A stretch of 64,000 bases of DNA from Candidatus Heimdallarchaeum aukensis. GTDB lineage: Archaea; Asgardarchaeota; Heimdallarchaeia; Heimdallarchaeales; Heimdallarchaeaceae. The stretch spans positions 800,001-864,000 of the forward strand of contig CP084166.1 of NCBI GenBank assembly GCA_021513695.1, given 5' to 3'. This document shows positions 1,577 to 53,233 of the stretch, piece after piece; within the stretch, counting starts at the first letter, position 1, and every line of letters starts with the position of its first letter. Both the position numbers and the translations under genes were made by a program. The notes under the pieces are model-generated. The model had not been told where the DNA came from and searched no databases. It was given only the letters and a program-made list of their open reading frames with translations.

Positions 1577-1681
1577 AGAAATAAGTGATAAAGAAAAGAA
1601 ATTAAATTAACAATTTTAAAAAGTAAATTCACTGTTTTTCTAATAAGATTTATTTAGGGTGTTTGAATAATATAATATTTG

Positions 1682-3265
1682 ATGAGATTTGTTTTATTTT
1701 CTGATACCCATATTGGTGGAAGATATGATGAAATGATATTGATGAAAGGTATAGATTTTATTAATAACATTGATGGAGATATTTTTATTCACTGTGGAGA
1801 TTTAACTGGTTCTGGCACTTTGGCTGAATATGAGATTGCTAGACTTTATTTAGAAAAAATCAAGAAAAGGCCTTTTTTCATTGTTCCTGGAAATCATGAC
1901 TGCAAAAATGTGGGTGATTTACTTTTTGAAGAAATAGTTGGTGAGCGTTTTTGGGTAAAGACATTCGAAAAAAAGAAAACTCGGATTCTTGGTCTTGACT
2001 CTACTGAACCCGATGCAAATACTGGAAGAATGGGTCCTAAATCAATAAAAAGAATTTATGAAGAATTTGAGGATTTACCAGAATATTGGTTAAAAGTTTT
2101 AGTTTTTCATCATCAGACTTTACCAATTCCCTATACTGGTAGAGAAAGAAGTGCAATCAAAGATGCAGGAGATGTAGTGAAAGCTATTCTTGATTGTAAC
2201 ATTCATCTTGTTTTCAATGGTCATAGGCACATTTCTAATGTCTATAAGATGTCTGATGGAGTAGTAAATGCTTGGATTATTAATGTTGGTACATTATCTT
2301 GTAAAAAAACTAGATATAGAGAAGAGTATAGCTTAACTGTCGTTGATGCTTCTTTAAAGAAAAACAACCTTGCTATTCGTAGTATACTACTTAAGAAAGA
2401 GCCTATCAGAGAAGTTGTAAAATATTCTGGTAAATTCCAACGTTTTATTGCCCCTATGAATAAGAAACACATAGCAACAATAATTCAAATAGGCAATACA
2501 GCTTTTTCTAATTCACGATTTAGGATGGGTAATTTCTACAAAGGTCTCGAAACAATTAATCTCATCCCTTGTGATGTAGTTGTCCATTGTGGAGAAGTTA
2601 CAGGTGCCTCCTATGTCAATGAGTTTCAAAGAGCAAAGGCTTTATTATCTCAAATAGAAAAACCTCTTATTGTTGTTCCAGGAGATAATGATGCTTTTCC
2701 ACTTGGTTGGGATTTGTTTCCTGAGTACATTGGTGATCCTAACCCCTATTTTGAGAATGAGCATTTGATTGTTAAAGGGTTCAATACTTGCTTAATTGAC
2801 GAACAAGAGGGAAGACTCGGAAGAGGAAATATGAAAGAGATGATAACAACATTTGAGAATAAATCAAAAATAGGAGTAGTAGCTTTTCATCATTCAATAA
2901 TGCCTTTACCTCACTCTAAACATGATGCAGAGCTAATAGATGCAGGAGATGTTCTTGCTGCCATAGTAAACCACAGAATCAATCTCGTTTTAACTGGAGC
3001 TAAAAATAGAAGCGGGTGTTGGCAAGTTAACGACACTGTATTTGTAAATGCTGGAACACTCAGCTCTGAAAATATTACTACAAGAGACGGAAATAGTTTC
3101 AACATAATAACCATTAGCCAAACAGATATAGGTAAACTTTACGAGGTCGATGAGTATTTTGTTGAAACAAACGAAAGAAAAACTATTGGAGTTTTCCATA
3201 TTTCTGATAGGGGGATACCTATTCTCATTCCTGATAGAAAGGTTCCCAACACCATTCATTTATGA
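1682..3265 (+). CDS. Tandem calcineurin-like metallophosphoesterase; the second module is degenerate
   Basis: First half carries the full MPP motif set: FSDTHIG (DxH), HCGDLTG (GD), GNHD, HHQT, GHRH. Second half has VVHCGEVTG, PGDNDAF, FHHSIMP and TGAKNRS, so the last His motif is lost. The ORF track starts at TTG 1679; ATG at 1682 is more likely. Confidence 0.8.
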   Translation: MRFVLFSDTHIGGRYDEMILMKGIDFINNIDGDIFIHCGDLTGSGTLAEYEIARLYLEKIKKRPFFIVPGNHDCKNVGDLLFEEIVGERFWVKTFEKKKTRILGLDSTEPDANTGRMGPKSIKRIYEEFEDLPEYWLKVLVFHHQTLPIPYTGRERSAIKDAGDVVKAILDCNIHLVFNGHRHISNVYKMSDGVVNAWIINVGTLSCKKTRYREEYSLTVVDASLKKNNLAIRSILLKKEPIREVVKYSGKFQRFIAPMNKKHIATIIQIGNTAFSNSRFRMGNFYKGLETINLIPCDVVVHCGEVTGASYVNEFQRAKALLSQIEKPLIVVPGDNDAFPLGWDLFPEYIGDPNPYFENEHLIVKGFNTCLIDEQEGRLGRGNMKEMITTFENKSKIGVVAFHHSIMPLPHSKHDAELIDAGDVLAAIVNHRINLVLTGAKNRSGCWQVNDTVFVNAGTLSSENITTRDGNSFNIITISQTDIGKLYEVDEYFVETNERKTIGVFHISDRGIPILIPDRKVPNTIHL

Positions 3266-3343
3266 TATAACTTAGATATTTAACTAGTTATATCGATAGA
3301 TATTGTAAAAAAATTTAAATCTAAATAATGAAGTGTACACCTT

Positions 3344-4627
3344 ATGCACAAAGAGGTAAAAAATTCAAAAAACGTTTCTTTTCCAGTTGTAATAAAAAAT
3401 TTAGATGAGAGAATGAATAAATGGTTGAAAGAAGCACAGAAACGTATATTTAGTATTGCTGCAGGAGATAGGATTTCATTCATAGCTTCTGCCATAGCAC
3501 AAGTTGGTTTTGGCAAAATCCTCTATGCTGCAAATGAACTTGGGGTTGATATTGAAAAAACCAAACCATACATTTTTTTTGCTCCTGACGGAACTTGCTC
3601 ATACAACGAAATTAGAATAAAAAGAGGTTTTACATATGGTTGTATATTCAAAGCAGATTTCGAGGGACTGATTGGTACTAATAACTCAATGCCAAACGGT
3701 TGTGGATATAGCTTATATGAACTTAAAGATTGGAACGATGATGAAACTCTAATCAGAACTTTAAACCAAATAAAGCAAAATATAACAGAAGAACAAGCAA
3801 AAGAACTAGGAAAAGGCAATCATTTTATTGCTGTTTACAAGGTTTTAGACGCTATATCAGGAGAAGATACAGAAAGGAGAATGGTATTACTTCATTGTAG
3901 TGGGCATGATTTAAGCAAAAAACCACTTTATTTCTTCAACTGGTTAGAAGAAACAGATGGATGTCATAAAGTACAAACACCACATGGAGAAATTTACCTT
4001 TTAGAAAGTGAGGCAAAAAAGAGATATATCAAAGAATTTGAGAAACTTGACAAACACAATAAAGAAGCTCGTGTCACTGTCATGAAAGAGTTGTTTAGAG
4101 ACTCTTCCTATGAATTAATTTCAAGTATCACTCACCAAGGGTTATATAATAACGGTTCATATCATTTTTTGGGAATACAAAAAAGCGAAAAACTTATTCC
4201 TATAGCTTTCAATGCAGATGAAGGAGGAATTGCTGTCAAGACAAAGAAGAATCTGTCAGGACAATTTATAGATCAATGGAAACAAGGAACAAGAGTGAAA
4301 GATTTAGGATATGAAAGAGAATTTAAAGAGCTCAACTTTACTCCACACGGAGGAGGATACGAATTCAAATACCCAATCAAACGTTTTGTTATATTCTTAA
4401 ATGATCAAGGACTGGATCACTTCTCGGTTGAATTAAAAAAGCCGAAAGAGCCAAGTATTAAACTTATTGCTTCCTATTTCAAACCTATTAGAGAATACAT
4501 GACATATAGGAGAAAGTTACCAGTAATGAAAGAAGTCTTTAAAGCGGAGCTAGCAAACCACATTTATGATCTTGTTCCATTTATGCAATTACATCCTAAA
4601 GTTAGTATTCCTGGAGGACATTACTAA
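3344..4627 (+). CDS. Divergent RtcB-family RNA ligase paralog (427 aa)
   Basis: Carries the hallmark RtcB active-site motifs in order: MPNGCGYS (Cys ligand), GKGNHFIAV (GSGNHF motif), HCSGHD (H-x-SG) and TPHGGGYEF (HGAGR-like nucleophile His region). Otherwise strongly diverged and shorter than canonical RtcB. Confidence 0.6.
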   Translation: MHKEVKNSKNVSFPVVIKNLDERMNKWLKEAQKRIFSIAAGDRISFIASAIAQVGFGKILYAANELGVDIEKTKPYIFFAPDGTCSYNEIRIKRGFTYGCIFKADFEGLIGTNNSMPNGCGYSLYELKDWNDDETLIRTLNQIKQNITEEQAKELGKGNHFIAVYKVLDAISGEDTERRMVLLHCSGHDLSKKPLYFFNWLEETDGCHKVQTPHGEIYLLESEAKKRYIKEFEKLDKHNKEARVTVMKELFRDSSYELISSITHQGLYNNGSYHFLGIQKSEKLIPIAFNADEGGIAVKTKKNLSGQFIDQWKQGTRVKDLGYEREFKELNFTPHGGGYEFKYPIKRFVIFLNDQGLDHFSVELKKPKEPSIKLIASYFKPIREYMTYRRKLPVMKEVFKAELANHIYDLVPFMQLHPKVSIPGGHY

Positions 4628-4651
4628 TCAAGATTTAACCAAAGTGATAAT

Positions 4652-5395
4652 ATGCATTCTAACCCTTACATTATAGCTCATCGGGGTTTTTCTTCTAAAT
4701 ACCCCGAAAATACTATTCTAGCGATTAACAGGTCAGTAGGAATAGCAGATATTGTTGAATTTGATGTTCAACTTACAAAAGATAGGTATGTAGTTTTATT
4801 TCATGATGAAACAACAAAAAGGATTTTCCCAGAAATCGAGGAGAAGAGAATCCAAGACTTATATTATCATGAACTAAAAGAATTAAATGCTGGTAAATGG
4901 TTTTCATCAAAAATAGAAAAACAAACTATTCCCAAACTCGAGGAAGTAGTAGAAAAGATAAACAACAAAATCTCAATGATTATTGAATTAAAGAACAAGG
5001 GAAATAAAGAAAAAAAAGAAGAACTAGCTACTATAGTATTGAATATCCTAGATGACAACAATGTCTCTTTAAACAAAGGGTATCTTTCAGTTCGAGACTT
5101 AGAAATGCTTGAAATTATTAACTCTCTTTCTTCAAAATACAGAATTGGATTAATGCAGAAAACGAGAACACCGGAAGAATTTATAGAACTAGTTAAAAGT
5201 AACAATCTTGAATTTGCTCAAATAAGATGGAAGAATTGGACTGAGAGTAATTGGCAAGAACTTTTGTCTTTAGAAACTAAAATTACTGCTTTTTATGCTG
5301 ATGAAGAAAAAGAATACAATTTTTTAATTGAAAAACAAGTTTATGGAATTTTCACTAATTTTCCAGATAGATTAAGAAAACTGCTGAACATGTAG
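4652..5395 (+). CDS. Glycerophosphodiester phosphodiesterase (GDPD family)
   Basis: N-terminal IIAHRGFSSKYPENT ... EFDVQLTKD ... FHDETT signature of the GDPD/UgpQ family. Confidence 0.75.
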   Translation: MHSNPYIIAHRGFSSKYPENTILAINRSVGIADIVEFDVQLTKDRYVVLFHDETTKRIFPEIEEKRIQDLYYHELKELNAGKWFSSKIEKQTIPKLEEVVEKINNKISMIIELKNKGNKEKKEELATIVLNILDDNNVSLNKGYLSVRDLEMLEIINSLSSKYRIGLMQKTRTPEEFIELVKSNNLEFAQIRWKNWTESNWQELLSLETKITAFYADEEKEYNFLIEKQVYGIFTNFPDRLRKLLNM

Positions 5396-5403
5396 AATTT
5401 AAT

Positions 5404-6147
5404 TTATTGAGGTTTCTTTCCTACAGTCGCTGCATAAATTACAAATTGATCTTTTCCATTAATGTTTAACAATTTATTTAGTTCATCATCATGAAAAGCT
5501 CCTATAGCACATGTTCCACAATCTATATTTTCAGAAGCAAGATAGAGATTCTGACAAACATGTCCCGCATCTAAGAATAGATATCTATACCCTCTTTCTC
5601 CATATCTCCAGGCCATACGGTAAGGAACAGCAACCCAAAAGAATGTTACAGCACTTCTTTTTACAGTACTTTGGTTATAAGATGCTTTTGTAAACTTTTC
5701 TGCTAGATTTTTTGAATTATCAATAGGCATCAGACTATGTTTAGAAGCAATATATCTATAGAGACCTGGTTCTATGTTGTCTACATTATTAATTAACAAG
5801 AAAGTTTCAAAAGCATGCCTAGCTCCTGCTGAAGGAACAGTTCTGAGAGTATAAGCTTGTCTCATAAATTCTTTTATTCCTTGAGAAGACCAGAGTAGCC
5901 AGCTTAACTCTAGTAAGCTTATTGGATCAGGAGCATATTTTCTTAAAGATCTTCTGTTTGTGATGCACTCTTTTAAAGAAACTTGAGGAATATTACTAAA
6001 ATCTCTACTCAATTCAATTAATTCTGCATTTTCGTCCCATGGGAGCTCTAAAGGGGGAGAGGGAGCTCCTTTACCTTGATCACTTCGAGAAAGATACTTA
6101 TACTTAGTTTTTTCAATAAACTCTTTTCCAATATTTTTGTATGTCAT
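5404..6147 (-). CDS. SagB-type nitroreductase-family dehydrogenase
   Basis: RRSLRKY motif plus C-terminal nitroreductase-like core (GARHAFETF..., FLDAGHVCQNLYL...). Stand-alone gene. Confidence 0.55.
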   Translation of the reverse strand: MTYKNIGKEFIEKTKYKYLSRSDQGKGAPSPPLELPWDENAELIELSRDFSNIPQVSLKECITNRRSLRKYAPDPISLLELSWLLWSSQGIKEFMRQAYTLRTVPSAGARHAFETFLLINNVDNIEPGLYRYIASKHSLMPIDNSKNLAEKFTKASYNQSTVKRSAVTFFWVAVPYRMAWRYGERGYRYLFLDAGHVCQNLYLASENIDCGTCAIGAFHDDELNKLLNINGKDQFVIYAATVGKKPQ

Positions 6148-6242: not shown

Positions 6243-6788
6243 GTGATACAGAGGAACTACAAAATAATACTTATTGGAAATGCTCTTGTTGGAAAAACTG
6301 CTATTGTAACACGTTTTGCTAAAGATTACTTTGAACAGAACTATTTGAGAACGCTAGGAATCAATTACTACATAAAGACACAAGTAATTACTAATGTAGA
6401 AGTAAAGATGATTATTACAGACACCGCAGGACAAGAAGCGTTTCAACGCCTAAGAAGTTCGTATTACAAGGGGGCAAGAGGAGCAATAATTGTTTATGCA
6501 ATAAATGACAGACATAGCTTTGGACAAGTTGATTATTGGAAGAATGAAATGTTCAAGACTTTAAAAGAAATCCCAATAATAATTGTCGGAAATAAAATTG
6601 ACTTAATCGATCAAAGAAGAATATCAACAAGTGAAGGACGCTTGTTAGCGAAAAAATTGGGTTGTTTATTTATTGAATCATCTGCTAAAACAGGAGAAAA
6701 TATTGATAAAATCTTTGAAATGATAGTTAAAGATATACTAAGAAAAGATAATTTAATAACAGAAGAAAAAGAAGAAAGTTCTACTTAA
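6243..6788 (+). CDS. Rab/Ras-family small GTPase (eukaryote-like), GTG start
   Basis: G1 GNALVGKT, G3 DTAGQE, RabF-like YYKGARG, G4 GNKIDL, G5 ESSAKTG. Confidence 0.8.
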   Translation: MIQRNYKIILIGNALVGKTAIVTRFAKDYFEQNYLRTLGINYYIKTQVITNVEVKMIITDTAGQEAFQRLRSSYYKGARGAIIVYAINDRHSFGQVDYWKNEMFKTLKEIPIIIVGNKIDLIDQRRISTSEGRLLAKKLGCLFIESSAKTGENIDKIFEMIVKDILRKDNLITEEKEESST

Positions 6789-6918: not shown

Positions 6919-7683
6919 ATGCTAGAAAGAGTTTTTTTTATTTATTACCAGTATATCTTTTTATCTTTAGGTATAGTAACTTTTTTTCTATTACTTAGAA
7001 TTACAGCTCCTTATGGGAAACATTTTTCAGAAAAATTTGGTCCTTCAATTAAAGGTTCTTGGGCTTGGTTGATTATGGAATCACCAGCAGCAATTACGAC
7101 TACGATTCTATTCTTACTTTCGCTAAAAGAACTATCACTAGTTCCTGTGCTTTTGGTTTGCATTTTTTGTATTCACTACTACCCTAGAGATTTTATTTAC
7201 CCTTTTTGGGCTAGAAGAGAAGCAAAAACACCTTTGATTATTATGTTCTCTGCTATATTCTTTAATATTAGCAATGCTTATCTTCAGACTAGATGGTTAC
7301 TCAAATTCGCTCCTGAAGATAAGTATACTATTAGTTGGCTTTATAGTCCCCAATTTATTGTTGGAAGTTTACTATTTATTTTAGGATTTATATTTAATCG
7401 AAAAGCTGAATTCTCATTAAGAAAACTAAGAAAGAAAGGAGAAAGTAGTTACAAAATACCCTATGGGGGAATGTTTGAGCTTATATCTTGTCCTAACTAC
7501 TTCTTTGAAATTATTGAATGGATAGGTTGGGCAATAATAACTTGGTCAATTCCAGGGCTTGTATTTATGATTTGGACTATAGCTAATCTTGGCCCAAGAG
7601 CAGTTAGCACGCATAACTGGTATAAAAATAACTTTCCAAATTATCCAAAATCAAGAAAAGCTCTTATTCCATTTGTTTTTTGA
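6919..7683 (+). CDS. 3-oxo-5-alpha-steroid 4-dehydrogenase / polyprenol reductase family membrane protein (SRD5A-like)
   Basis: C-terminus GGMFELISCPNYFFEIIEWIGWAI...WYKNNFPNYPKSRKALIPFVF matches the SRD5A C-terminal domain closely. N-terminal TAPYGKH motif also present. Multi-TM. Confidence 0.8.
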   Translation: MLERVFFIYYQYIFLSLGIVTFFLLLRITAPYGKHFSEKFGPSIKGSWAWLIMESPAAITTTILFLLSLKELSLVPVLLVCIFCIHYYPRDFIYPFWARREAKTPLIIMFSAIFFNISNAYLQTRWLLKFAPEDKYTISWLYSPQFIVGSLLFILGFIFNRKAEFSLRKLRKKGESSYKIPYGGMFELISCPNYFFEIIEWIGWAIITWSIPGLVFMIWTIANLGPRAVSTHNWYKNNFPNYPKSRKALIPFVF

Positions 7684-13930: not shown

Positions 13931-15676
13931 CTATTCTAATATCCCATTTCTTTTGAATATTTCCATAATCTCATTAACTTTTTCTTCTTGATCTATGTTC
14001 ATATCACTTGTTTCTAGTTCTAAGGACAAAAGTAGTCCTGTGGATTTATTACATACAATGCTGATGGTTTCAAGATTAAGTTCTTTTATATCGCTTGTGT
14101 CCCAGATATAGGTATGCAAAACGTTTCCAGATTCATATTCTACTTGTTTCATCACAATTTCTTTTCCTTCTAAAAATGCTTCTAAATTATTCATGTCAAT
14201 CTTTCTATTAATGTTTAAGGTTATAATGAAATCTCTTAATGCTTTTTTCTCCATTCTTGATTTACTTATCCGTAAATACACTACTAAAGCTACCCACGCA
14301 AAAATGCTGAAAATAAATAGTATAAGATTTGCTATCTGATCTCTAGCTAACGGTATTTTATTTACAATTGAATTATAAATTGTTTGGTCAGAAGAGATTT
14401 CTCCAATGGCAAAAGCTACAATCTCAAGAATTATTGAACCAGCAAGAATCAATTCGATCATATCAATAGCTTCGCTAGTTCTTGTATTAGCTTGAAGAAC
14501 TTGATTCATCGATTTTGTATTTTGTGTCATTGCTTTATTCATTTTTCTTATTTGCATTTCAGAAAGTGTATTTATGTGATCTCTCTTCCCTTCGAGCTCA
14601 GTAAGTAAACCCTTAATTACTTTAGTGCTTTCTTTTACTCTATTTCGTATGGTTTCTAATCCTTTTTCGATTTCAAAGAAAGAAAAAGTGGATAAACTAT
14701 CAAAATTATTTGTTAGCTGCTCACATGAATCATGCAAAAACTCTTTTACTTGTCCTAAAACGCTAATTGTACTTGTTAGAATAGTTATCTCTTCTTGTAC
14801 TTTGTTTAGAGCATCAGTATTTCCTTTTACAGCCATATTAACTAATTCTTGAATTTCATTGGTTTGATCATAAAGTTCCCATACTCGAGACATGAAACTG
14901 TCAATGAATATAGTTATTCCTTCTTTTATACCGTTATAAATTGAGTAATATTCCATTTCTTCAGTAAACTCTTTGGGTACAAGAATAGCCCCTCTATTAC
15001 CTATAAAATAGATGGAACCATCTATAGAATGTGCTCTAAACCCTTCTCCAATTATTTGACTTATCTCAATCTCACAATCTTCACCATCTAAGTAATCTTT
15101 TACGTCTTCAAACTTCTTGTTTATATCTTCCCCAACAATGAGAATAGTTTTAGGTCTATACATTGGGTTACCAAAAATAATTTTGATAAAGTTCCTCTGA
15201 AATTCTGTAAGAAGAGAGTCTATAACTTGTGATGAATCTTGTGAAAGATCAGCAATAACGCGAGAGAGTTTATCTAAAGACATAAAGCTATTCTTTCCAT
15301 TAATTTCACGAAGATCTAAAGAATAAATAATAAAACCTAACTTTGAAATAAATACAGCCATTTCCTCAATCTGTACTATTCCTTCTTCTTCAGGTAGATC
15401 AATTATTGCTTCAAGATTAACATAATTATTAATATCGTAATCCTTTACTGTTACTTTTGTATATTTGCCTTCTGTTAGAAAAGAGGGAGAATCAGGGTCA
15501 GAGTCAATCAATCCTGTAAGTAAAGTTTTAGAAGAACTCTTTTCTATATCTAGTTTCTTATTAAGTTCTCTCAGCTGATTACTATCAAAAGGAAGCCATT
15601 CAATTACGAAAATTTTAGGGTTTTTTAGAAAAAGTATTTCACTTAATTCATCCTTTATGTTATCTGATTTTTGCAT
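13931..15676 (-). CDS. Hypothetical membrane protein (581 aa): N-terminal soluble domain, coiled-coil, two TM helices, ~110-aa C-terminal domain
   Basis: ORF. TM pair LAGSIILEIVAFAIGEI / IANLILFIFSIFAWVALVVYL. No GMN or other known motif. Confidence 0.55.
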   Translation of the reverse strand: MQKSDNIKDELSEILFLKNPKIFVIEWLPFDSNQLRELNKKLDIEKSSSKTLLTGLIDSDPDSPSFLTEGKYTKVTVKDYDINNYVNLEAIIDLPEEEGIVQIEEMAVFISKLGFIIYSLDLREINGKNSFMSLDKLSRVIADLSQDSSQVIDSLLTEFQRNFIKIIFGNPMYRPKTILIVGEDINKKFEDVKDYLDGEDCEIEISQIIGEGFRAHSIDGSIYFIGNRGAILVPKEFTEEMEYYSIYNGIKEGITIFIDSFMSRVWELYDQTNEIQELVNMAVKGNTDALNKVQEEITILTSTISVLGQVKEFLHDSCEQLTNNFDSLSTFSFFEIEKGLETIRNRVKESTKVIKGLLTELEGKRDHINTLSEMQIRKMNKAMTQNTKSMNQVLQANTRTSEAIDMIELILAGSIILEIVAFAIGEISSDQTIYNSIVNKIPLARDQIANLILFIFSIFAWVALVVYLRISKSRMEKKALRDFIITLNINRKIDMNNLEAFLEGKEIVMKQVEYESGNVLHTYIWDTSDIKELNLETISIVCNKSTGLLLSLELETSDMNIDQEEKVNEIMEIFKRNGILE

Positions 15677-26260: not shown

Positions 26261-27427
26261 ATGCTGCATAGTAGCTTTGTACTAAAAAATCAAAAAAGTG
26301 AAAATATGAAAGGCAAAAGAATAGTTAACTTTTCTAGTTGTTTTCTATTATGTTTAGTGATTTTCTCAATTTCAACAATTGGATCTTCTGACGAAATTGT
26401 GGAAAGAGAGGAAAGACTTTCAAGTTCAGATATTTATCTAGCAGAGGAAACAAATACATTGTACATTACATCATCAGATGAAAATATTTTATATGTTTTC
26501 AGTACTCAATCACTAGAGATACAACAAACTATTGAATATGATTCGCCAATAACACATCATATTTCAAGGATTTTTTCTTTTGGTGACGAGCTCTTTCTCT
26601 TTAATTACAACTCTAGCAATTTAGCTGTTTTAAAAATAGATCCTGATTATTCAGTAAATTTACTTTCATTCACTCAAGATTATATTCCTATTAACTATGA
26701 CTGCATTTTTAGTTATCTTGAATATATTGGTTTTATTTCTAATGAAAACAAATTAATTTTATTTTCACCTACAAATCAAAGTCTCATAGATACAGGAATT
26801 ATCATTCCTAACATAAATTTTGTTACTTCTTGTAATGAAACAATTATTGTATACAATACTTTTCAATCTTCTAGTTACAAACAATTCGTCTTTTATGATA
26901 TATTAAAGAAAAAAATCTTAGCTAATTACACTTACAATAACACAAATGTTAAACTTTCGTATCTTCCTGAAGAACATGCTTTTGCAGCGCTCTACACCTC
27001 AGCTAATAATGTCTCTATTTTCTCTACTAAAGGAGATTTCCAAAGAAATATTACAATAAATTTAGAAGAAGAAATACTTACACCAATATTTGAAAGTTCT
27101 GGAAATTGGTTCTTTGCCTCGTATGAACATTTCTATCATTATTCTAATAACAAATCAACAGAGTTACTGACTTATAATAGTAAATTATTGTCCTTTGTTA
27201 CTATAAAAAAAGTTCTAACACAAGATTCTGTTCATATTTTTATATCCACACCTTATTATACATATTTGTATGATATAAATGAAGATTCTTTTTATGCATT
27301 ATACAAAATAACAACTGAATTAATTATAAATAATAATAGTAAAAGAATCTACTTCATTGATTTTGGATTGATAGCAGCAACAATAATGTTTGGAGCAGGA
27401 GTCATTTATTACTTGGTGAAGAAATGA
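26261..27427 (+). CDS. Secreted protein with C-terminal TM anchor (388 aa); likely true start at MKGKRIV (~26306)
   Basis: Signal-like FSSCFLLCLVIFSIS, many N-x-S/T sequons, C-terminal TM plus KK. Confidence 0.5.
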   Translation: MLHSSFVLKNQKSENMKGKRIVNFSSCFLLCLVIFSISTIGSSDEIVEREERLSSSDIYLAEETNTLYITSSDENILYVFSTQSLEIQQTIEYDSPITHHISRIFSFGDELFLFNYNSSNLAVLKIDPDYSVNLLSFTQDYIPINYDCIFSYLEYIGFISNENKLILFSPTNQSLIDTGIIIPNINFVTSCNETIIVYNTFQSSSYKQFVFYDILKKKILANYTYNNTNVKLSYLPEEHAFAALYTSANNVSIFSTKGDFQRNITINLEEEILTPIFESSGNWFFASYEHFYHYSNNKSTELLTYNSKLLSFVTIKKVLTQDSVHIFISTPYYTYLYDINEDSFYALYKITTELIINNNSKRIYFIDFGLIAATIMFGAGVIYYLVKK

Positions 27428-27476: not shown

Positions 27477-29156
27477 TTAGGAAATTGAAGATTCCTTAAC
27501 TATACATATAATGGGAGAATTGATTACATAATATTCTTCTAGTGAAGAATTTTGGACGTTTGCAAAAGCAAAAGTTAAACTTGTTCCAGCAGAGAACGAG
27601 GAATTAACTTTTCCAACTATTGAAAAGATACCTGTAGAATTTATTAGTACTTTTGAATAGTTTTCTTCTGTCTGGGTAATCGAAATCTGTGAATTTAGTT
27701 CAGTAGAATTTACAGAATAAATGTAACTGAATGAATCGAAATAGTCATTATTGTTTGAGTCATATATCAGACTATTAAAGATGATAATGTTAATATCGAA
27801 TCCTTTAGGAATATTTGAATAAAAGGAACTTATGTTCATTACACAAGAGAAAGTACCGTTAGTGAAAACATCCATTTGTTCAATAATAATGGTCGAATTA
27901 GCTTCCCAATGGGGATAGAATATTTTTCCCCCATCAAATAAATTGTTGTTACTGATTGATGAAAGAAAAGAAATAAGTGGAAAAGGAATACAAATTAGTA
28001 AAATAAGTAAAGATGTAAAAATAACTCTTTTGGCAGTTGAAGAGAGTTTAAAACTTTTTTTGGTTATTTGTTCAGTAATTTTTTTGATCAGTAGAAAGCT
28101 TTTTGCCTTTTTACTTTTCCAATATTTAAGTATTTCAAATAGAATAAGAGGAAGATAGAATAAAAGAAATACTACAAAAAGAGCTTTTTCAAGAGTGAAA
28201 GGAATATAATCGGTTGAAGGTATTGAAATACCAAAAAGGACGATTGTAGTTTTAACTGCTACCTGAGAAACGTGATGATTCCAAAAAGATACAGAATACA
28301 GGAATAAAACAATAAAAACAACTGATGAAAGAACTATTTTTACCAATGATAATTTAGTCGAAATAGTTTTTTCCAAATCGTTTTTTGTTTTATTCTCTAT
28401 CGCAGGTTTTTTTGAGATCTTTTCTAGAAGGAAGTTTAGAAAACTATAGATTACAATATTAACAAGAATAAAAAGAATATACCATAAGATAGCAAATCTG
28501 GAGAAAAATAGACTAAAGGTTCCACTTAAAGCTATAACAAACACACCTACAAAACTAATAGCAACAGAAGATAAAACTGGAAGATTTGATATTCTATCAA
28601 TTACATAATTGATGTTTTGATTTTCACTAGTTCTATTTGGTTTTTCTTCATGAGAAACTAGAAGAATTAACCCTTCTAAAAGTAGAACTAAAGGAAGCAA
28701 AAAAGAACTGAGAATAAATAAAGGATTAAAAGATAAACTCAAATAAAAGGAAGAGTTTTCGATCATCTTGACAACCCAAAAGGCAGTTATCGCTACTTTG
28801 TAGTTATATATTAGAAACAAATAATCAGTCAATTTAGAAAAAGCAAACATGATCAAGAAAATACCTGTTTTTCTATTATTTACAAAAACAAGATAATTTA
28901 TTGACAACACAACAAATATAGTAAACAAAGCTAAAAAGATGAAAGAAAGCATAGATTCATTTGTATTCTTAATAGTAGAGAGAGAATTTTGAATCGTAGC
29001 TGTATCCTCTTTTAATTGAGTTGAAGAAACATAAGCTCTACCAAAAACAAAGGAAGTTAGGTGTGCTGTTAAAAGGTTTAAGAAAGACAAAATTAAGGCT
29101 ATTGAATTTAGAATTAAAACTGTTATTAATACAATTTTTTTTCTCATTTTCTTCAC
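27477..29156 (-). CDS. Polytopic membrane protein (559 aa) with a C-terminal extracytoplasmic domain
   Basis: About 12 hydrophobic segments followed by an N-x-S/T-rich soluble tail. Confidence 0.55.
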   Translation of the reverse strand: MKKMRKKIVLITVLILNSIALILSFLNLLTAHLTSFVFGRAYVSSTQLKEDTATIQNSLSTIKNTNESMLSFIFLALFTIFVVLSINYLVFVNNRKTGIFLIMFAFSKLTDYLFLIYNYKVAITAFWVVKMIENSSFYLSLSFNPLFILSSFLLPLVLLLEGLILLVSHEEKPNRTSENQNINYVIDRISNLPVLSSVAISFVGVFVIALSGTFSLFFSRFAILWYILFILVNIVIYSFLNFLLEKISKKPAIENKTKNDLEKTISTKLSLVKIVLSSVVFIVLFLYSVSFWNHHVSQVAVKTTIVLFGISIPSTDYIPFTLEKALFVVFLLFYLPLILFEILKYWKSKKAKSFLLIKKITEQITKKSFKLSSTAKRVIFTSLLILLICIPFPLISFLSSISNNNLFDGGKIFYPHWEANSTIIIEQMDVFTNGTFSCVMNISSFYSNIPKGFDINIIIFNSLIYDSNNNDYFDSFSYIYSVNSTELNSQISITQTEENYSKVLINSTGIFSIVGKVNSSFSAGTSLTFAFANVQNSSLEEYYVINSPIICIVKESSIS

Positions 29157-37219: not shown

Positions 37220-38689
37220 TTATTCTTCTGAATTTATTTTAGGAACAACTTCAATTTTTTCTTTTTCATCTATTACTATAGGTTCTTTGAAACTTATCCA
37301 GTAAGTCTTATTCATTATTGTGTCTACATCTAGTCTGTTTGAAACTTCTTTTGTTCCTAAACTAGCTAATCTTATAATAAACCATTCAAAACTGTATTTA
37401 AAGTTCTTTTTACTCCAAGTAACAATCAGTAAATGATAACAATAGGTAACGAACAACGCTACTAAAAGGGCATATCCTGCTTTTTCATATGGGAGTTTAT
37501 CCCTTACTAGGTCATCGTCTACAAGAAAACTAAACAGCCAACGAGGAAGCAAGGAAAATATCTGTAAAGAAAAAACTGTAAGAGCTACAGTTCCCCATAA
37601 CCGCATCGTTCTGACAAATTTTCTATTTGCAAACTTTTCAGGGTTACCTTTAAATTCTACATAATTTAGCAATAATGCTACCACTCCGATCCAAGCAAAA
37701 AGAAGAAACATGAAATATGACAGATTAGGTCTATTCCAAGTAAAATCAAAACGAACTAATGGATCTTTTGTTATCTCTCCAATAACCAGTAAAATTCCCC
37801 CTAAAATCGCAAATCCAAAACTTGCTATTCCTAAATATTGGGGAAGTTTTTTTGATGGTTTTGGTTTAGCTAGTAGTATCCCTATAATTGAACCAATAAA
37901 TGATACTGATAGGAAGGGGAATAAGGGTTCTAAATCTCCTGCTAAAACAACAAAAATATAGGTTTTAAAGTTGTGATAACTTCGAGCAGTTACTTCATCT
38001 GGCCATTTAGGATAAAGAGGATCAATTAACCTCCAAAGAGGATAACTTAAAGCTAAAATTGCGAAAGCTAATCCGGCATAAATAAGAACATTACGTTTGA
38101 TTTTCAAATATCCTTTGTTTTTAATTAAGAAGTAATGAATTATACCATTGATAATCATACACCAACCAATTGCTTGCAGAGTTTCCATGGTGAAAAAAGC
38201 CCTACCAAATCTTAGCCAAAAATCTTGTACTGTGTGGATAGCCCACGGTGTAGTCCCCTTTGATCTTATTGAAGTGCCAATATATCCGTAATAAAGTAAT
38301 CCTTCTGTTATTGCTCCTACGATTAGTAATCCAACTCCTGTAAGTATTTGTTTGGCTAAAATTTTGTTAGGGTCATAACCTTTTGCTGCTTTTTTAGTCA
38401 TAGCTAAAACATTGACTATAGCAGAAATTAAAAGAAAATACCCTGCCCATCCACTTAAGAATGCTATTAGAAAAACACTAGCAATAATAAGTGGGCTTTT
38501 TTGTAAAAGTTGGTCTATATTAGTTGCCCACGAAATATCGTACATATGTTGTATCTCATGGAGAAGGACCATCATAAAAATCGCCAACCCTCTCTGAAAG
38601 TCTAGAGAGGCTATTCTTTTCATTTGTTTTACTTCTTTCATTTCAACTGATTCTTTTGTTAAAGTTGACATTTTACGCTCTCTTTTCAA
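37220..38689 (-). CDS. Polytopic membrane protein, DUF1624/HGSNAT-like acyltransferase-type (489 aa)
   Basis: N-terminal ASLDFQRGLAIFMMVLLHE is typical of that family. ~11 TM. Confidence 0.45.
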   Translation of the reverse strand: MKRERKMSTLTKESVEMKEVKQMKRIASLDFQRGLAIFMMVLLHEIQHMYDISWATNIDQLLQKSPLIIASVFLIAFLSGWAGYFLLISAIVNVLAMTKKAAKGYDPNKILAKQILTGVGLLIVGAITEGLLYYGYIGTSIRSKGTTPWAIHTVQDFWLRFGRAFFTMETLQAIGWCMIINGIIHYFLIKNKGYLKIKRNVLIYAGLAFAILALSYPLWRLIDPLYPKWPDEVTARSYHNFKTYIFVVLAGDLEPLFPFLSVSFIGSIIGILLAKPKPSKKLPQYLGIASFGFAILGGILLVIGEITKDPLVRFDFTWNRPNLSYFMFLLFAWIGVVALLLNYVEFKGNPEKFANRKFVRTMRLWGTVALTVFSLQIFSLLPRWLFSFLVDDDLVRDKLPYEKAGYALLVALFVTYCYHLLIVTWSKKNFKYSFEWFIIRLASLGTKEVSNRLDVDTIMNKTYWISFKEPIVIDEKEKIEVVPKINSEE

Positions 38690-51115: not shown

Positions 51116-53233
51116 ATGAAAATTAACCCTTTAAATAACCCTTTTCACATCATATATCTTTCAATTTCATTCTTAATAATGCTTGATGATATCCTTTTTC
51201 CAACTGCTTTTTCACAGTACTGTTATATTATTGGTTCAACATTCATAATGATATATGTCCTACTAATAGTTTCAAAAATCATTCAACAAAAATATATTAA
51301 TATTATATCAATTATTGTTTTAGAAGTAACTGCCAGTTTATTGAATTCATTAACATTGAAATATTATAGAATGAATGGGTTGATTATTCACAAATTATTT
51401 GAATTTTGGTTTTATCTTCCTCTTATGCTTGGTATGTTTTACATCAGCTATCATATATTACATGAACCTTTTCTCTCTTCAAAGTTTATTTTAGTAGTTA
51501 TATCTATTTTAGCAATATGGTTGAGAGTTTTACCACATATATCTTTTAGTTATCTTGTATTTGGTGATACATATTATCTATATAGTACAACTTTGGTTCA
51601 AGCTAATTTAATTGATTTGGCAAACCCTACCGAGTTATCATATTTTAAAGCGTTTTCAGGATATAATTATATCACAGCATGGCCATTTATGCTTTGGATA
51701 ACTTTTCTTGTAGCCAAAATTGGTTTCCCGCTTGAATTCTTCCTTGGTTATTTTACACCTGTTTTTTGTGGAAGTACAATTCCAGTACTCGGTTACAAAA
51801 TTTCAAAAAAAATCTTTAATGCGGTTTTCAAAAATAAAGATGTAGAGAGATTATCGCTATTTAATGCTTTAATTATATCAACAATTGGAGTAATAATATT
51901 TTTCACATTAGAACTGTCACATTTTGCTTTTGGTCTTGTTATTTTAATATTATCGCTAAAATTAATGCTAGAACCAAAAATTCTTTTAAAAAGCAAGTTT
52001 AAATATTTTTTAATGTTATCATTATCTTTCATCACTATTGTTAACCACGCAATTTTAGCTTTAGTAGACTTAGCAATATCTACAACTTGGATTGGATTAA
52101 TCTTAAAAACCAATACAAAAAATAAAAAAGAAAAATTATTGTTTCTGTTTCTATGGTTATTCAAACTCTTGTTTTTTGTTTTATTTTCATTTTCTTCTAA
52201 ACGATTGATTATCTTAATTAAAGCTTTTAATATAAACCCAAGTTCATTTATGATAACAGCTGTTCCAATAGCTACAATTCTCTTTTCTACTATTTTTTTA
52301 GTATTTATATATTACTTTTCTTCTATTGATATTTACAAAATACTAAATAGAAATATGAAATTTGCACGCTATATTCTAATAATCATCACAACTTTAAGTT
52401 TAATAGTCTATAATTCATTTTTCAATGTCAGAATCGTTGGAACAATGATAAAATTATTTTTTGTAATTGTTATAGGATTAAGCATTCTTTCAAATAATGG
52501 ATTTAAAGAAAAAACTGATGTTTTTACTATGAAATATCTTTTGTTTTCATTATTAGTAATTGGTTTTATTTCTATTGGTATAATATTTTTAGGGGTTATA
52601 GGTGGTAGTGGTATTGGTTTTTTCTTAAGATTTTTTACTATACTTACTATTATATCTGTTCCTATTTTTAGTGAAAAAATGTTCAGCATTTATATGAAAA
52701 ATCTGAAAGGTAAAGTTATAGTTTTATTAGTAACATCAATGATTGTTGTCAACAGTTATCCAATCAGTATGTTACATCCTTTTGATTGGCAATTTAGAGA
52801 TCAAATGTCATATGATTTAACAAATGATGATTTAAATATATTAGATAAGTTTGCAAGCATATACAAAAGTGAAAAAGAAGCAAATATTAATAAATCTATA
52901 ATGGTATTATCACATTATCCTGTAAATTATCAACTAATAAGAAATGGTATTAGTTTTATTGATGGAGATGCATATAAATTTCTGATATATTGGAGTCTTC
53001 AAACCAATGAAAATAATTCCAATAAAGTATATAAGATGATGTACAACCTTTTTAATATCCGCTACATCATATTCAATAAATATATTATAAAAAACCAAGT
53101 TTCTATTGATGAATATCAATTGTTTCTTGAACTTTATAATCTTTCAAATGGTTATAGAAAATTACTAGAAAGTAAAAATCTACTAATTGTGGAGATTATA
53201 CCTTATAGATATTCATATTTTAAACTTTATTAG
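51116..53233 (+). CDS. Large polytopic membrane protein (705 aa), putative glycan polymerase/transferase of the island; not AglB-like
   Basis: At least 15 hydrophobic segments plus a C-terminal soluble domain. No WWDYG motif. Confidence 0.5.
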   Translation: MKINPLNNPFHIIYLSISFLIMLDDILFPTAFSQYCYIIGSTFIMIYVLLIVSKIIQQKYINIISIIVLEVTASLLNSLTLKYYRMNGLIIHKLFEFWFYLPLMLGMFYISYHILHEPFLSSKFILVVISILAIWLRVLPHISFSYLVFGDTYYLYSTTLVQANLIDLANPTELSYFKAFSGYNYITAWPFMLWITFLVAKIGFPLEFFLGYFTPVFCGSTIPVLGYKISKKIFNAVFKNKDVERLSLFNALIISTIGVIIFFTLELSHFAFGLVILILSLKLMLEPKILLKSKFKYFLMLSLSFITIVNHAILALVDLAISTTWIGLILKTNTKNKKEKLLFLFLWLFKLLFFVLFSFSSKRLIILIKAFNINPSSFMITAVPIATILFSTIFLVFIYYFSSIDIYKILNRNMKFARYILIIITTLSLIVYNSFFNVRIVGTMIKLFFVIVIGLSILSNNGFKEKTDVFTMKYLLFSLLVIGFISIGIIFLGVIGGSGIGFFLRFFTILTIISVPIFSEKMFSIYMKNLKGKVIVLLVTSMIVVNSYPISMLHPFDWQFRDQMSYDLTNDDLNILDKFASIYKSEKEANINKSIMVLSHYPVNYQLIRNGISFIDGDAYKFLIYWSLQTNENNSNKVYKMMYNLFNIRYIIFNKYIIKNQVSIDEYQLFLELYNLSNGYRKLLESKNLLIVEIIPYRYSYFKLY

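Follow-up and report, generated by a model that had tools for sequence, protein, structure and literature searches.

The window, by which we mean the whole 64-kb stretch of DNA analysed here, carries an RtcB-like gene lying between a tandem metallophosphodiesterase gene and a glycerophosphodiester phosphodiesterase (GDPD) gene. These genes, a short box upstream of the RtcB-like gene and the sequence motifs found within it are as follows:

1679..3265, + strand, tandem metallophosphodiesterase gene (528 aa product), ending 78 nt upstream of the RtcB-like gene
3307..3320, + strand, A/T-rich box AAAAAAATTTAAAT, some 30 nt before the RtcB-like ATG
3344..4627, + strand, RtcB-like gene with an ATG start, 427 aa; predicted RtcB-fold protein from the Heimdallarchaeial subfamily of an unannotated RtcB-like family
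3578..3595, + strand, FAPDGT, with D82 aligned to Asp65 of the P. horikoshii RtcB 'MPD' motif
3692..3712 (aa 117–123), + strand, PNGCGYS, with C120 as the predicted metal-bridging Cys (RtcB Cys98) and N113/N114 upstream in the Asp95 region
3809..3835 (aa 156–164), + strand, GKGNHFIAV, with N159 aligned to Asn202, H160 to His203 (Mn2 ligand) and A163 at the Glu206 position
3893..3910 (aa 184–189), + strand, HCSGHD, with H184 aligned to RtcB His234 (Mn1 ligand) and H188 to Arg238
4130..4141, + strand, THQG, with H264 aligned to RtcB His329 (Mn1 ligand)
4343..4366 (aa 334–341), + strand, PHGGGYEF, with H335 as the predicted nucleotidyl-accepting His (RtcB His404) and Y339 in place of Arg408
4652..5395, + strand, UgpQ-like GDPD gene, 24 nt downstream of the RtcB-like gene; Pfam GDPD E = 7e-31

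An earlier note on this DNA had described the open reading frame at 3344–4627 (+) as a shortened and divergent RtcB paralog, and we found it exactly as given (ATG start, 427 aa) with all four of the islands quoted as matching RtcB (PNGCGYS, GKGNHFIAV, HCSGHD and PHGGGYEF). The protein had been put at about 50 aa shorter than archaeal RtcB; against the 481 aa of P. horikoshii RtcB the difference is ~54 aa, and in our profile alignment most of the loss is in the stretch that separates the Cys and GNHF motifs, where ~65 aa are deleted. The ORF is intact in the window, and the orthologue in a related genome is 93–94% identical. We also note two more islands, THQG and FAPDGT, which were absent from the earlier list.

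Outside the islands the protein had been called unrecognisable by eye, which was a fair description. No RtcB was returned by a PDB phmmer search with the single window sequence, nothing was found at E ≤ 10 when the PDB was searched with a 49-sequence profile, and the Pfam RtcB model PF01139 gave 10.9 bits (E = 0.27) with a cut-off of 27, so that the curated threshold was not reached. NCBIfam provided no match for the window protein, its relatives scored 12–16 bits with NCBIfam RtcB models having cut-offs of 272–407, and 25 of the 49 family members matched PF01139 weakly and below threshold (best E = 1.8e-4). However, the AlphaFold2 (AF2) model of the window protein has a pLDDT of 91.3, and its sole significant match in a Foldseek search of the PDB was human RTCB (8odo_A, E = 3.6e-6). 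When a 200-sequence family profile was compared with a 12-sequence RtcB profile using hhalign, the two aligned over 310 columns with a probability of 92% (P = 5.5e-7), compared with P = 0.42 and 0.28 for the unrelated and reversed profiles used as decoys. It should be noted that the profile match was significant only with this combination: a 49-sequence Heimdallarchaeial alignment matched a 3-sequence RtcB alignment in the GNHF region only (P = 6e-4) and gave a nonsense alignment in global mode, and the Heimdallarchaeial sequences alone reached P = 4e-4 with the larger RtcB profile. We are close to certain that the 427-aa protein has an RtcB fold and belongs to a separate family, and the profile comparison indicates that the islands are not chance resemblances. 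Because the identity with canonical RtcB is ~13%, the split between the two appears to be ancient and not the result of a recent duplication. The word paralog presupposes a second, canonical rtcB in the genome; none is present within the 64-kb window, a search for RtcB homologues gave Thermus-like sequences only, and PF01139 RtcB was found in every complete archaeal genome examined in one paper (PMC12918454).

Further searching identified 88 close homologues of the window protein, and an exhaustive profile search extended the family to no fewer than 248 clusters at 50% identity, with no Pfam or NCBIfam model covering it. The wider family (P0090–P0235) has members in the Altiarchaeales, Myxococcota and Promethearchaeota and in many sediment metagenomes, all homologous with E-values of 1e-70 to 1e-11 in comparisons with the Heimdallarchaeial profile, and one bacterial-type subfamily accounts for at least 488 metagenomic loci. 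Identity among the 200 family sequences that we aligned is as low as ~20%. The Heimdallarchaeial profile scored four representatives at E ≤ 1e-109 and the next one at 4e-70, and by this measure the proteins from Heimdallarchaeia are a subfamily of their own. The gap in scores, the size of the family and the lack of Pfam and NCBIfam models strongly support the separate RtcB-like clade suggested earlier. We found nothing relevant in the literature on this family, on RtcB with GDPD, or on Asgard glycerophosphodiesterases.

The residue map we produced is a sequence-level one, based on profile–profile alignment with hhalign posteriors and conservation counts over the 200 family sequences, and the roles of the RtcB residues were taken from published work (PMC8051266, PMC8668186, PMC9745838). 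In RtcB, Cys98 bridges Mn1 and Mn2 (PMC8051266), Asn202 contacts the 5'-OH and the GMP phosphate, and His203 is an Mn2 ligand (PMC8051266, PMC9745838). The islands had been attributed to the Cys/His metal ligands and the GMP-accepting His, and in our alignment they do fall on these catalytic residues: C120 aligns with C98 (posterior 7; Cys in 195/200 sequences), H160 with H203, H184 with H234, and H335 with H404 of the RtcB HGAGR loop (posterior 9 and His in 200/200 sequences for each of the three pairs). N159 aligns with N202 (posterior 9; Asn in 198/200), and H264 with H329 with a posterior of only 5 (His in 200/200). Two glycines beside H335 are conserved (G336 and G338, the latter in 197/200 sequences), and D82, which aligns with D65 at a low posterior of 3, is invariant in the Heimdallarchaeial subfamily and found in 188/200 family sequences. 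The RtcB catalytic core, consisting of one Cys (C120), one Asn (N159), three predicted metal-binding His (H160, H184 and H264) and the predicted nucleotidyl-accepting His (H335), is on this evidence kept. Of the two results that the earlier note had named as counting against its idea, a structure prediction lacking the RtcB fold and motifs falling outside the active site, neither was seen.

Other parts of the active site have changed or align poorly. The Mn2 ligand Asp95 aligns with N113 with a posterior of only 4, a four-residue insertion precedes the Cys, and there is no strict counterpart to Asp95 in the Heimdallarchaeial subfamily, where the aligned position is N/S/H/Q (D/E/N in the wider family) with N114 and N118 conserved near it. 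RtcB Arg408 is replaced by Tyr339 in the window protein, the Ser385-equivalent region aligns with a posterior of 1, and Arg190 and Gln194 fall within, or next to, the part of the alignment that is deleted or unresolved. RtcB recognises guanine through Glu206 (N1/N2) and Lys480 (O6) (PMC9745838), and contacts the 5'-OH strand through Asn202, Arg238, Arg190 and Gln194 (PMC8051266). Three of these positions aligned as follows:

Position 163 (RtcB E206): G/A in the Heimdallarchaeial subfamily (80/84 sequences); N/E/D in the wider family; posterior 9
Position 423 (RtcB K480): P in the Heimdallarchaeial subfamily (66/84 sequences); K/R in the wider family (87/116 sequences); posterior 6
Position 188 (RtcB R238): gap or variable in both the Heimdallarchaeial subfamily and the wider family; posterior 1

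Both guanine-specific contacts are, according to this alignment, replaced in the Heimdallarchaeial subfamily. For the 5'-OH strand, the Asn202 equivalent N159 is conserved, whereas the Arg238 position is a gap or variable at a posterior of 1 and is conserved in neither group, the alignment being poor there. The two observations together suggest that the cofactor and substrates probably differ from those of tRNA-splicing RtcB. The wider family shares the invariant His, Cys and Asn residues of the Heimdallarchaeial subfamily, but differs from it in having mostly acidic or amide residues at the E206 position, Lys/Arg at the K480 position and Asp/Glu at the D95-aligned position, and in lacking the Heimdallarchaeial-specific invariants N114, H214, N290, E293, E340 and R389. 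Isoelectric point and net charge were uninformative as proxies for nucleic-acid binding, the median pI being 5.9 in the Heimdallarchaeial group, 6.3 in the wider family and 6.6 in Thermus-like RtcB.

The downstream gene (4652..5395) encodes a GDPD which matched PDB GDPDs down to E = 3e-18 and NCBIfam PRK09454, and it is probably co-transcribed with the RtcB-like gene. Box AAAAAAATTTAAAT is a candidate archaeal BRE/TATA promoter for the pair, and comparison with Ca. Heimdallarchaeum endolithica shows a nearly identical 3' half of the intergenic sequence, box included, and a diverged 5' half. The N-terminal domain of the upstream metallophosphodiesterase (1679..3265) is of the GpdQ/Rv0805 type and looks active, with a degenerate C-terminal copy; the nearest structures are GpdQ, Lmo2642 and Rv0805 and not Mre11, and there is a weak NCBIfam similarity to the 2',3'-cNMP phosphodiesterase SpdA. 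Anti-phage defence was considered and rejected, as neither the RtcB-like protein nor the GDPD was matched by PADLOC and the metallophosphoesterase gave a generic domain match only.

When 33 non-redundant loci were compared, the RtcB-like gene had a GDPD next to it or not far off in 21, and in 18 of these the GDPD followed it immediately on the same strand (gaps of -29 to +93 nt, including 4-nt overlaps in four of the 18). A tandem GpdQ/Rv0805-type metallophosphodiesterase was close by in 19/33 loci. The gene orders seen across two major clades include metallophosphoesterase–RtcB-like–GDPD, RtcB-like–GDPD–metallophosphoesterase and divergent arrangements, with DegV placed between the RtcB-like and GDPD genes in one lineage, and the links to both partners therefore survive changes in gene order. 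About a third of the Heimdallarchaeial loci have neither link, and these are probably paralogues. No archease, RtcA/RtcR, PrfH, endonuclease, tRNA or tRNA-splicing gene was found among the scanned window ORFs, and neither archease, RtcA/RtcR, PrfH nor splicing genes were among the recurrent neighbours of the 33 loci as judged by flanking-ORF clustering, with Pfam calls for a few loci.

The contexts of the wider family are unlike these. In a bacterial-type subfamily the gene lies between a DksA/TraR zinc-finger gene and genes for an HD hydrolase and PolX, a setting which looks like nucleic-acid repair. One distant member forms a fusion with an APH/choline-kinase-type kinase and is found in a cluster of radical-SAM, aminotransferase, SDR and HAD genes, and the loci of distant members from Promethearchaeota, Altiarchaeales and Myxococcota had no recurrent partner. 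It should be noted that the locus scan of the wider family covered 80 loci, which came from one closely related subfamily, and the gene order shared by them is therefore weak evidence.

The best overall explanation, to which we assign a probability of about one half, is that the window protein is an active phosphoester ligase or activator forming a His-NMP intermediate, with a non-canonical substrate that may be a glycerophospho compound. Catalytic activity through His-NMP seems likely given the predicted core, and a substrate other than canonical tRNA/RNA ends is somewhat favoured. The conserved operon with two glycerophosphodiesterase-type enzymes suggests that the phosphate esters which the protein joins or activates are not the usual tRNA ends, and since both conserved partners resemble glycerophospho- or cyclic-phosphodiesterases, glycerophospho compounds are the substrate class that we prefer, tentative as this assignment is. 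The different substrate proposed in the earlier note thus gains circumstantial backing from the replacement of E206 and K480, the unconserved but poorly aligned R238 position, and the two small-molecule-type phosphodiesterase partners.

Under this explanation a two-metal centre would promote attack of H335 on an NTP to produce enzyme-(His)-NMP; the NMP would then be transferred to a phosphomonoester, possibly one derived from an opened vicinal cyclic phosphate, to give X-O-P-P-N, and attack by a hydroxyl would form a new phosphodiester. Candidate substrates would be glycerol phosphate or glycerol-1,2-cyclic phosphate freed by the GDPD, or lipid head groups, and the RtcB-like protein, GDPD and metallophosphodiesterase could together make up a module to cleave, re-activate and re-join phosphodiesters.

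Somewhat less probable, but the strongest of the alternatives, is a specialised nucleic-acid end-joining enzyme comparable to the rRNA-repair RtcB2, which would seal or cap a certain RNA or DNA 3'-phosphate or 2',3'-cyclic-phosphate end, with the phosphodiesterases trimming cyclic-phosphate ends or clearing 2',3'-cNMP breakdown products. An RNA-end or RNA-breakdown context would suit the metallophosphoesterase just as well, because enzymes of the Rv0805 and Lmo2642 type, which are among its nearest structural relatives, also hydrolyse 2',3'-cyclic nucleotides (2',3'-cNMPs); the weak similarity to SpdA can be read in the same way. The intact catalytic core is what such an enzyme would need, and nucleic acids are the substrates of all RtcB enzymes characterised (PMC8051266). 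Elsewhere in the family, an HD hydrolase follows the P0102 subfamily gene at 15 loci, and a PolX/PHP polymerase does so at 10, but these loci are 56–95% identical and the shared gene order is therefore weak evidence. In the Heimdallarchaeial subfamily itself, replacement of the base-specific GTP contacts, an unconserved (though poorly aligned, posterior 1) position for the Arg238 contact with the 5'-OH strand and the ~65 residues absent between the Cys and GNHF motifs all count against end-joining, as does the lack of a nearby archease, RtcA, endonuclease or tRNA gene. The tightest partner, as judged from the 4-nt overlaps, is the GDPD, and we know of no nucleic-acid substrate for enzymes of that family.

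We regard it as rather improbable that the protein performs only part of the RtcB reaction, either as a nucleotidyltransferase which stops at NDP-X (e.g. an NDP-glycerol-type donor) or as a metal-dependent cyclic phosphodiesterase. The activities of RtcB are separable into cyclic-phosphate hydrolysis, histidine nucleotidylation and phosphate activation, and all three operon products are of kinds that act on phosphodiesters. With pre-guanylylated DNAppG, the RtcB N167A mutant removed the GMP and did not ligate (PMC8051266), and the replacement of Arg408 by Tyr and the Heimdallarchaeial-specific invariants N290, E293 and E340 could be accommodated by an altered end-point of this kind. However, Asn159, the counterpart of a residue implicated in the strand-joining step, is present in 198/200 sequences, and nothing in the sequence tells the partial reaction from the complete one. 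An inactive RtcB-fold protein serving in structure or regulation, or a gene in decay, would be in keeping with the failure of every curated RtcB model and the changed Asp95 and Arg408 equivalents, but is very improbable given the near-invariance of the four His, the Cys and the Asn over sequences as little as ~20% identical, the intact ORF with its 93–94% identical orthologue, and the confident AF2 model.

Returning to a His-NMP-forming enzyme with a non-canonical substrate, we speculate that in Heimdallarchaeia, and perhaps in the wider family, the RtcB fold was recruited to a non-nucleic-acid substrate, so that it would nucleotidylate and ligate glycerol phosphate or its cyclic form, or the phosphates of lipid head groups, and, together with the GDPD and GpdQ-type diesterase, constitute a pathway for phosphodiester head-group exchange or salvage. 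We hold this extended proposal to be doubtful, and know of no RtcB-fold enzyme that acts on anything but nucleic acids. If true, it would widen the reaction scope of the fold and provide a new route to phosphodiesters via a covalent His-NMP intermediate, in a so far unrecognised phosphodiester-remodelling pathway of the archaea most closely related to eukaryotes, a lineage in which the biochemistry of membrane lipids is not settled. Should the substrate instead be RNA, the family would offer a compact and very divergent RtcB with which to map the minimal catalytic core. In either case, what has been defined here is a large unannotated sister family of RtcB which keeps the residues that define its chemistry, together with a Heimdallarchaeial branch that has a seemingly rebuilt nucleobase pocket and a tie to two glycerophosphodiesterase-type enzymes, and some 250 'hypothetical protein' sequence clusters gain a usable annotation.

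The closest known system is RtcB itself, the RNA 3'-phosphate/2',3'-cyclic phosphate–5'-OH ligase represented by PF01139 and by structures from P. horikoshii (1UC2/4DWQ), T. thermophilus (2EPG) and human (RTCB, 7P3B/8ODO). The RtcB-like protein has the same catalytic order of Cys, Asn-His, His, His and His in an HG.G loop, an Arg conserved in the helix that follows the second His (R243, corresponding to R296) and a similar C-terminal strand (P418, corresponding to P475), but it is only ~13% identical, falls under every curated threshold, is ~54 aa shorter, and is partnered by a GDPD and a GpdQ-type phosphodiesterase and not by archease, RtcA or splicing machinery. To our knowledge RtcB is the only ligase fold that joins 3'-phosphate ends via His-GMP, with all characterised members acting on RNA or DNA. 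The RtcB2–PrfH ribosome-repair module (NCBIfam TIGR03073 'release_rtcB') sets a precedent for a diverged RtcB with a special substrate and a conserved operon partner (PMC9223846, PMC13166195); however, RtcB2 proteins still match curated RtcB models and act on rRNA, whereas the present family reaches 12–16 bits with such models and its partners are small-molecule-type phosphodiesterases. GpdQ, with its metallophosphoesterase fold, and UgpQ/GlpQ, with the GDPD fold, are the nearest relatives of the two neighbours and are not homologues of the RtcB-like protein. Finally, if the preferred explanation is right, the net chemistry would be analogous to that of glycerol-3-phosphate cytidylyltransferase and CDP-alcohol routes, in which NMP activation of a phosphomonoester is followed by transfer to a hydroxyl, although those enzymes have folds unrelated to RtcB and form no covalent His-NMP intermediate.

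The ORF at 3344–4627 is intact, begins with ATG and encodes 427 amino acids, and all four strings quoted in the earlier note, which had taken it for a divergent, shortened RtcB paralog retaining the catalytic motifs, are present in it. This gene, its motifs and its two partner genes are:

3344–4627 (+), RtcB-like gene, with PNGCGYS (residues 117–123), GKGNHFIAV (156–164), HCSGHD (184–189) and PHGGGYEF (334–341)
1679–3265 (+), tandem metallophosphoesterase of 528 aa, ending 78 nt upstream of the RtcB-like gene
4652–5395 (+), UgpQ-like GDPD of 247 aa, starting 24 nt downstream

That only short islands match RtcB is a fair description, as Pfam, NCBIfam and PDB sequence searches do not recognise the protein: its score against Pfam RtcB (PF01139) is 10.9 bits (E = 0.27; cut-off 27), an NCBIfam scan gave no match, phmmer against all PDB chains did not find RtcB, and a PDB search with a 49-sequence family profile returned no match at E ≤ 10. 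PF01139 was matched below threshold by 25 of the 49 family members (best E = 1.8e-4), and by none of ten wider-family members tested (the wider family being the unannotated RtcB-like proteins outside the Heimdallarchaeial group). The AlphaFold2 model, with 49 homologues as input, is confident (mean pLDDT 91.3, pTM 0.91), and its sole significant Foldseek match in the PDB, human RTCB (E = 3.6e-6), shows that the predicted fold is that of RtcB.

RtcB sequences from PDB alignments and a homologue search were made into a 12-sequence profile and compared by hhalign with one built from 200 members of the new family, which aligned residues 58–423 of the window protein with 46–480 of P. horikoshii RtcB over 310 columns (probability 92%, P = 5.5e-7; P = 0.42 for an unrelated profile and 0.28 for the reversed RtcB profile). 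In RtcB, the ligands of Mn1 are C98, H234 and H329 and those of Mn2 are D95, C98 and H203, with H404 carrying GMP and N202 contacting the 5'-OH (PMC8051266). Together with the residue pairs, these roles indicate that the four islands correspond to active-site residues, in agreement with their earlier assignment to the Cys/His metal ligands and the GMP-accepting His; a fifth ligand, H329, lies in a THQG island (H264) absent from the earlier list. The protein is also shorter than canonical archaeal RtcB, as had been claimed (427 versus 481 aa in P. horikoshii), with most of the difference due to the absence of ~65 residues from the stretch that separates the Cys motif from GNHF.

Residue pairs in the profile–profile alignment (window protein; P. 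horikoshii RtcB; posterior digit; conservation over 200 family sequences with identity down to ~20%, where counted)
D82; D65; 3; 188/200
G99; G75; 8
N113; D95; 4
C120; C98; 7; 195/200
N159-H160; N202-H203; 9; 198/200 and 200/200
A163; E206; 9
H184; H234; 9; 200/200
R243; R296; 9
H264; H329; 5; 200/200
H335; H404; 9; 200/200
Y339; R408; 9
P423; K480; 6

G338 was retained in 197 of the same 200 sequences, and the overall pattern indicates a conserved active site. Homologues found by a word-indexed search (88, nearly all ~428 aa) came, where named, from Heimdallarchaeota, Kariarchaeaceae or Hodarchaeales MAGs except for one Thorarchaeota-labelled MAG, and a single one bore the label 'RtcB family protein', the others being 'hypothetical'. 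When 1.84 billion representatives were searched exhaustively by profile, at least 248 clusters were obtained at E ≤ 1e-3, with the Heimdall group as four representatives at E ≤ 1e-109, the next representative at E = 4e-70, and beyond the group a long tail of 360–415 aa proteins whose named members are from Altiarchaeales, Myxococcota, Promethearchaeota, Hermodarchaeota and Odinarchaeota; one bacterial-type subfamily alone occurs at no fewer than 488 metagenomic loci. The separate clade suggested earlier is borne out by these clusters, by scores below curated thresholds and by the discrete Heimdall subfamily, and we conclude that this is a separate, unannotated family with a conserved catalytic inventory. 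Literature searches found no published description of it.

Guanine is read in RtcB by Glu206 (N1/N2) and Lys480 (O6) (PMC9745838; see PMC8668186 for the human RTCB equivalents), and R238 contacts the 5'-OH strand.

Specificity positions (position; wider family; Heimdall subfamily)
163 (RtcB E206); mostly N/E/D; G/A in 80/84
423 (RtcB K480); K/R in 87/116; P in 66/84
113 (aligned to D95); D/E/N; N/S/H/Q
188 (aligned to R238, posterior 1, poor alignment); gap or variable; gap or variable

Invariants peculiar to the Heimdall subfamily are N114, H214, N290, E293, E340 and R389. The changed positions, set beside the retained catalytic residues, indicate a preserved core together with remodelling of the predicted pocket for the cofactor base and of part of the substrate surface.

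Among 33 non-redundant Heimdall loci, the GDPD adjoins the RtcB-like gene in 21 and lies directly downstream on the same strand in 18 (gaps of -29 to +93 nt, with a 4-nt start/stop overlap in four), a further GDPD, in L018, lies on the opposite strand with a 4-nt overlap, and 19 loci have the tandem metallophosphoesterase. The orders Metallophos–RtcBL–GDPD, RtcBL–GDPD–Metallophos and divergent are spread over two major neighbour-joining clades; linkage kept through rearrangement is a classical sign of functional coupling, and these data show a predicted conserved operon with two phosphodiesterases in the subfamily. About a third of the loci have neither partner, and these are probably paralogues because two genomes each carry two copies (GCA_026702845.1, L001 and L002; CP070695.1, L024 and L025), with both partners neighbouring just one of the two copies in GCA_026702845.1.

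Several loci depart from this arrangement. One lineage has a DegV fatty-acid-binding protein between the RtcB-like gene and GDPD. The deepest Heimdall-type clade (L026–L028) is without GDPD and metallophosphoesterase and has a 500-aa ORF directly 5' of the RtcB-like gene (e.g. L028 8228–9718), with an ABC ATPase C-terminal half (Pfam) and an N-terminal half that appears membrane permease-like by eye. In L022 (3785–5089, a MAG contig) the RtcB-like gene is in two ORFs (3785–4405 and 4580–5089), which is a frameshift, pseudogene or assembly error.

The metallophosphoesterase (model pLDDT 90.7; Mre11 and SbcD score just 17–19 against it) is a tandem duplication whose N-terminal domain retains each of the five metal-binding motifs (DxH, GD, GNHD, HH, GHRH), and the C-terminal copy is probably a pseudo-enzyme domain because its motifs are degenerate (IGNT, GE, GDND, GAKN). 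This architecture is conserved throughout the Asgard archaea, and some Bathyarchaeota and Spirochaetales have it too.

The window (G+C ~30%) has its closest genomic match in Candidatus Heimdallarchaeum endolithica PR6 (CP084167.1; 94% protein identity, identical gene order). The 3' half of intergenic 3266–3343 is almost identical there and the 5' half diverged; AAAAAAATTTAAAT at 3307–3320, within the conserved half and ~30 nt 5' of the RtcB-like ATG, fits a candidate archaeal BRE/TATA promoter with a very short leader, and a perfect 9-nt inverted repeat (3264–3272 / 3286–3294) is not conserved. Other features nearby are:

5404–6147 (-), SagB-type nitroreductase-fold dehydrogenase flanking the operon
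6243–6788 (+), small GTPase of the Ras/Rab type, 1.6 kb downstream (Pfam Ras E = 7e-53), one of the 'eukaryotic signature' proteins typical of Asgard archaea
6919–7683 (+), steroid-5-alpha-reductase/DUF1295-family membrane protein, also flanking

The last family recurs a few kb from RtcB-like genes in L002 (3513–4193) and L034 (20133–20921). Large ORFs without a Pfam match include 13931–15676, 26261–27427, 27477–29156, 37220–38689 and 51116–53233. Over the 64-kb window ARAGORN found no tRNA gene, Rfam no family at gathering score, and we found no canonical rtcB; PF01139 RtcB occurred in every complete archaeal genome examined by one study (PMC12918454).

In the wider family, the conserved partner, where seen, is a phosphoesterase. 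The distant member P0118 (743 aa, L036 6001–8232) is a fusion with an N-terminal kinase of the APH/choline-kinase type. Genes for two radical-SAM enzymes, two HAD hydrolases, an aminotransferase and an SDR are clustered with it, and the setting resembles small-molecule metabolism or a biosynthetic cluster. The abundant P0102 subfamily of sediment metagenomes (L041–L120, e.g. L045 7529–9233, L053 9759–11498, L112 1464–2105) has TetR, DksA/TraR zinc finger, RtcB-like, HD hydrolase and PolX/PHP polymerase genes in what looks like a nucleic-acid repair neighbourhood, and this shared order carries little weight because the loci are 56–95% identical. Promethearchaeota, Altiarchaeales and Myxococcota neighbourhoods were uninformative.

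The glycerophosphodiesterase-like partners and replaced guanine contacts, joined by the unconserved (poorly aligned) Arg238 position, favour a non-canonical substrate. To this extent the different substrate proposed earlier has circumstantial support, and glycerophospho compounds would be the most likely class (probability about 0.35). A covalent His335-NMP would form on the enzyme, the acceptor of the NMP would be a phosphomonoester, or a cyclic phosphate opened by the same enzyme, and hydroxyl attack would finish a new phosphodiester. An end ligase specialised for RNA or DNA, somewhat less likely, would draw on the precedent of RtcB chemistry, the action of Rv0805-type enzymes on 2',3'-cNMP and the HD/PolX context of the P0102 subfamily. 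It is improbable that the protein carries out just part of the RtcB reaction, serving as an activating nucleotidyltransferase or a cyclic phosphodiesterase, and very improbable indeed that it is a dead enzyme, as the conservation pattern speaks against decay or a solely structural role.

Compared with RtcB, the window protein appears alike in predicted fold and catalytic residues; however, it scores below the curated family thresholds, the guanine contacts are not kept in the Heimdall subfamily, and no archease, RtcA/RtcR, PrfH or tRNA-splicing gene appeared among the window ORFs scanned or the recurrent neighbours at the 33 related loci. As it differs on all three counts, we file it not as an RtcB but as the member of a new family within that superfamily.
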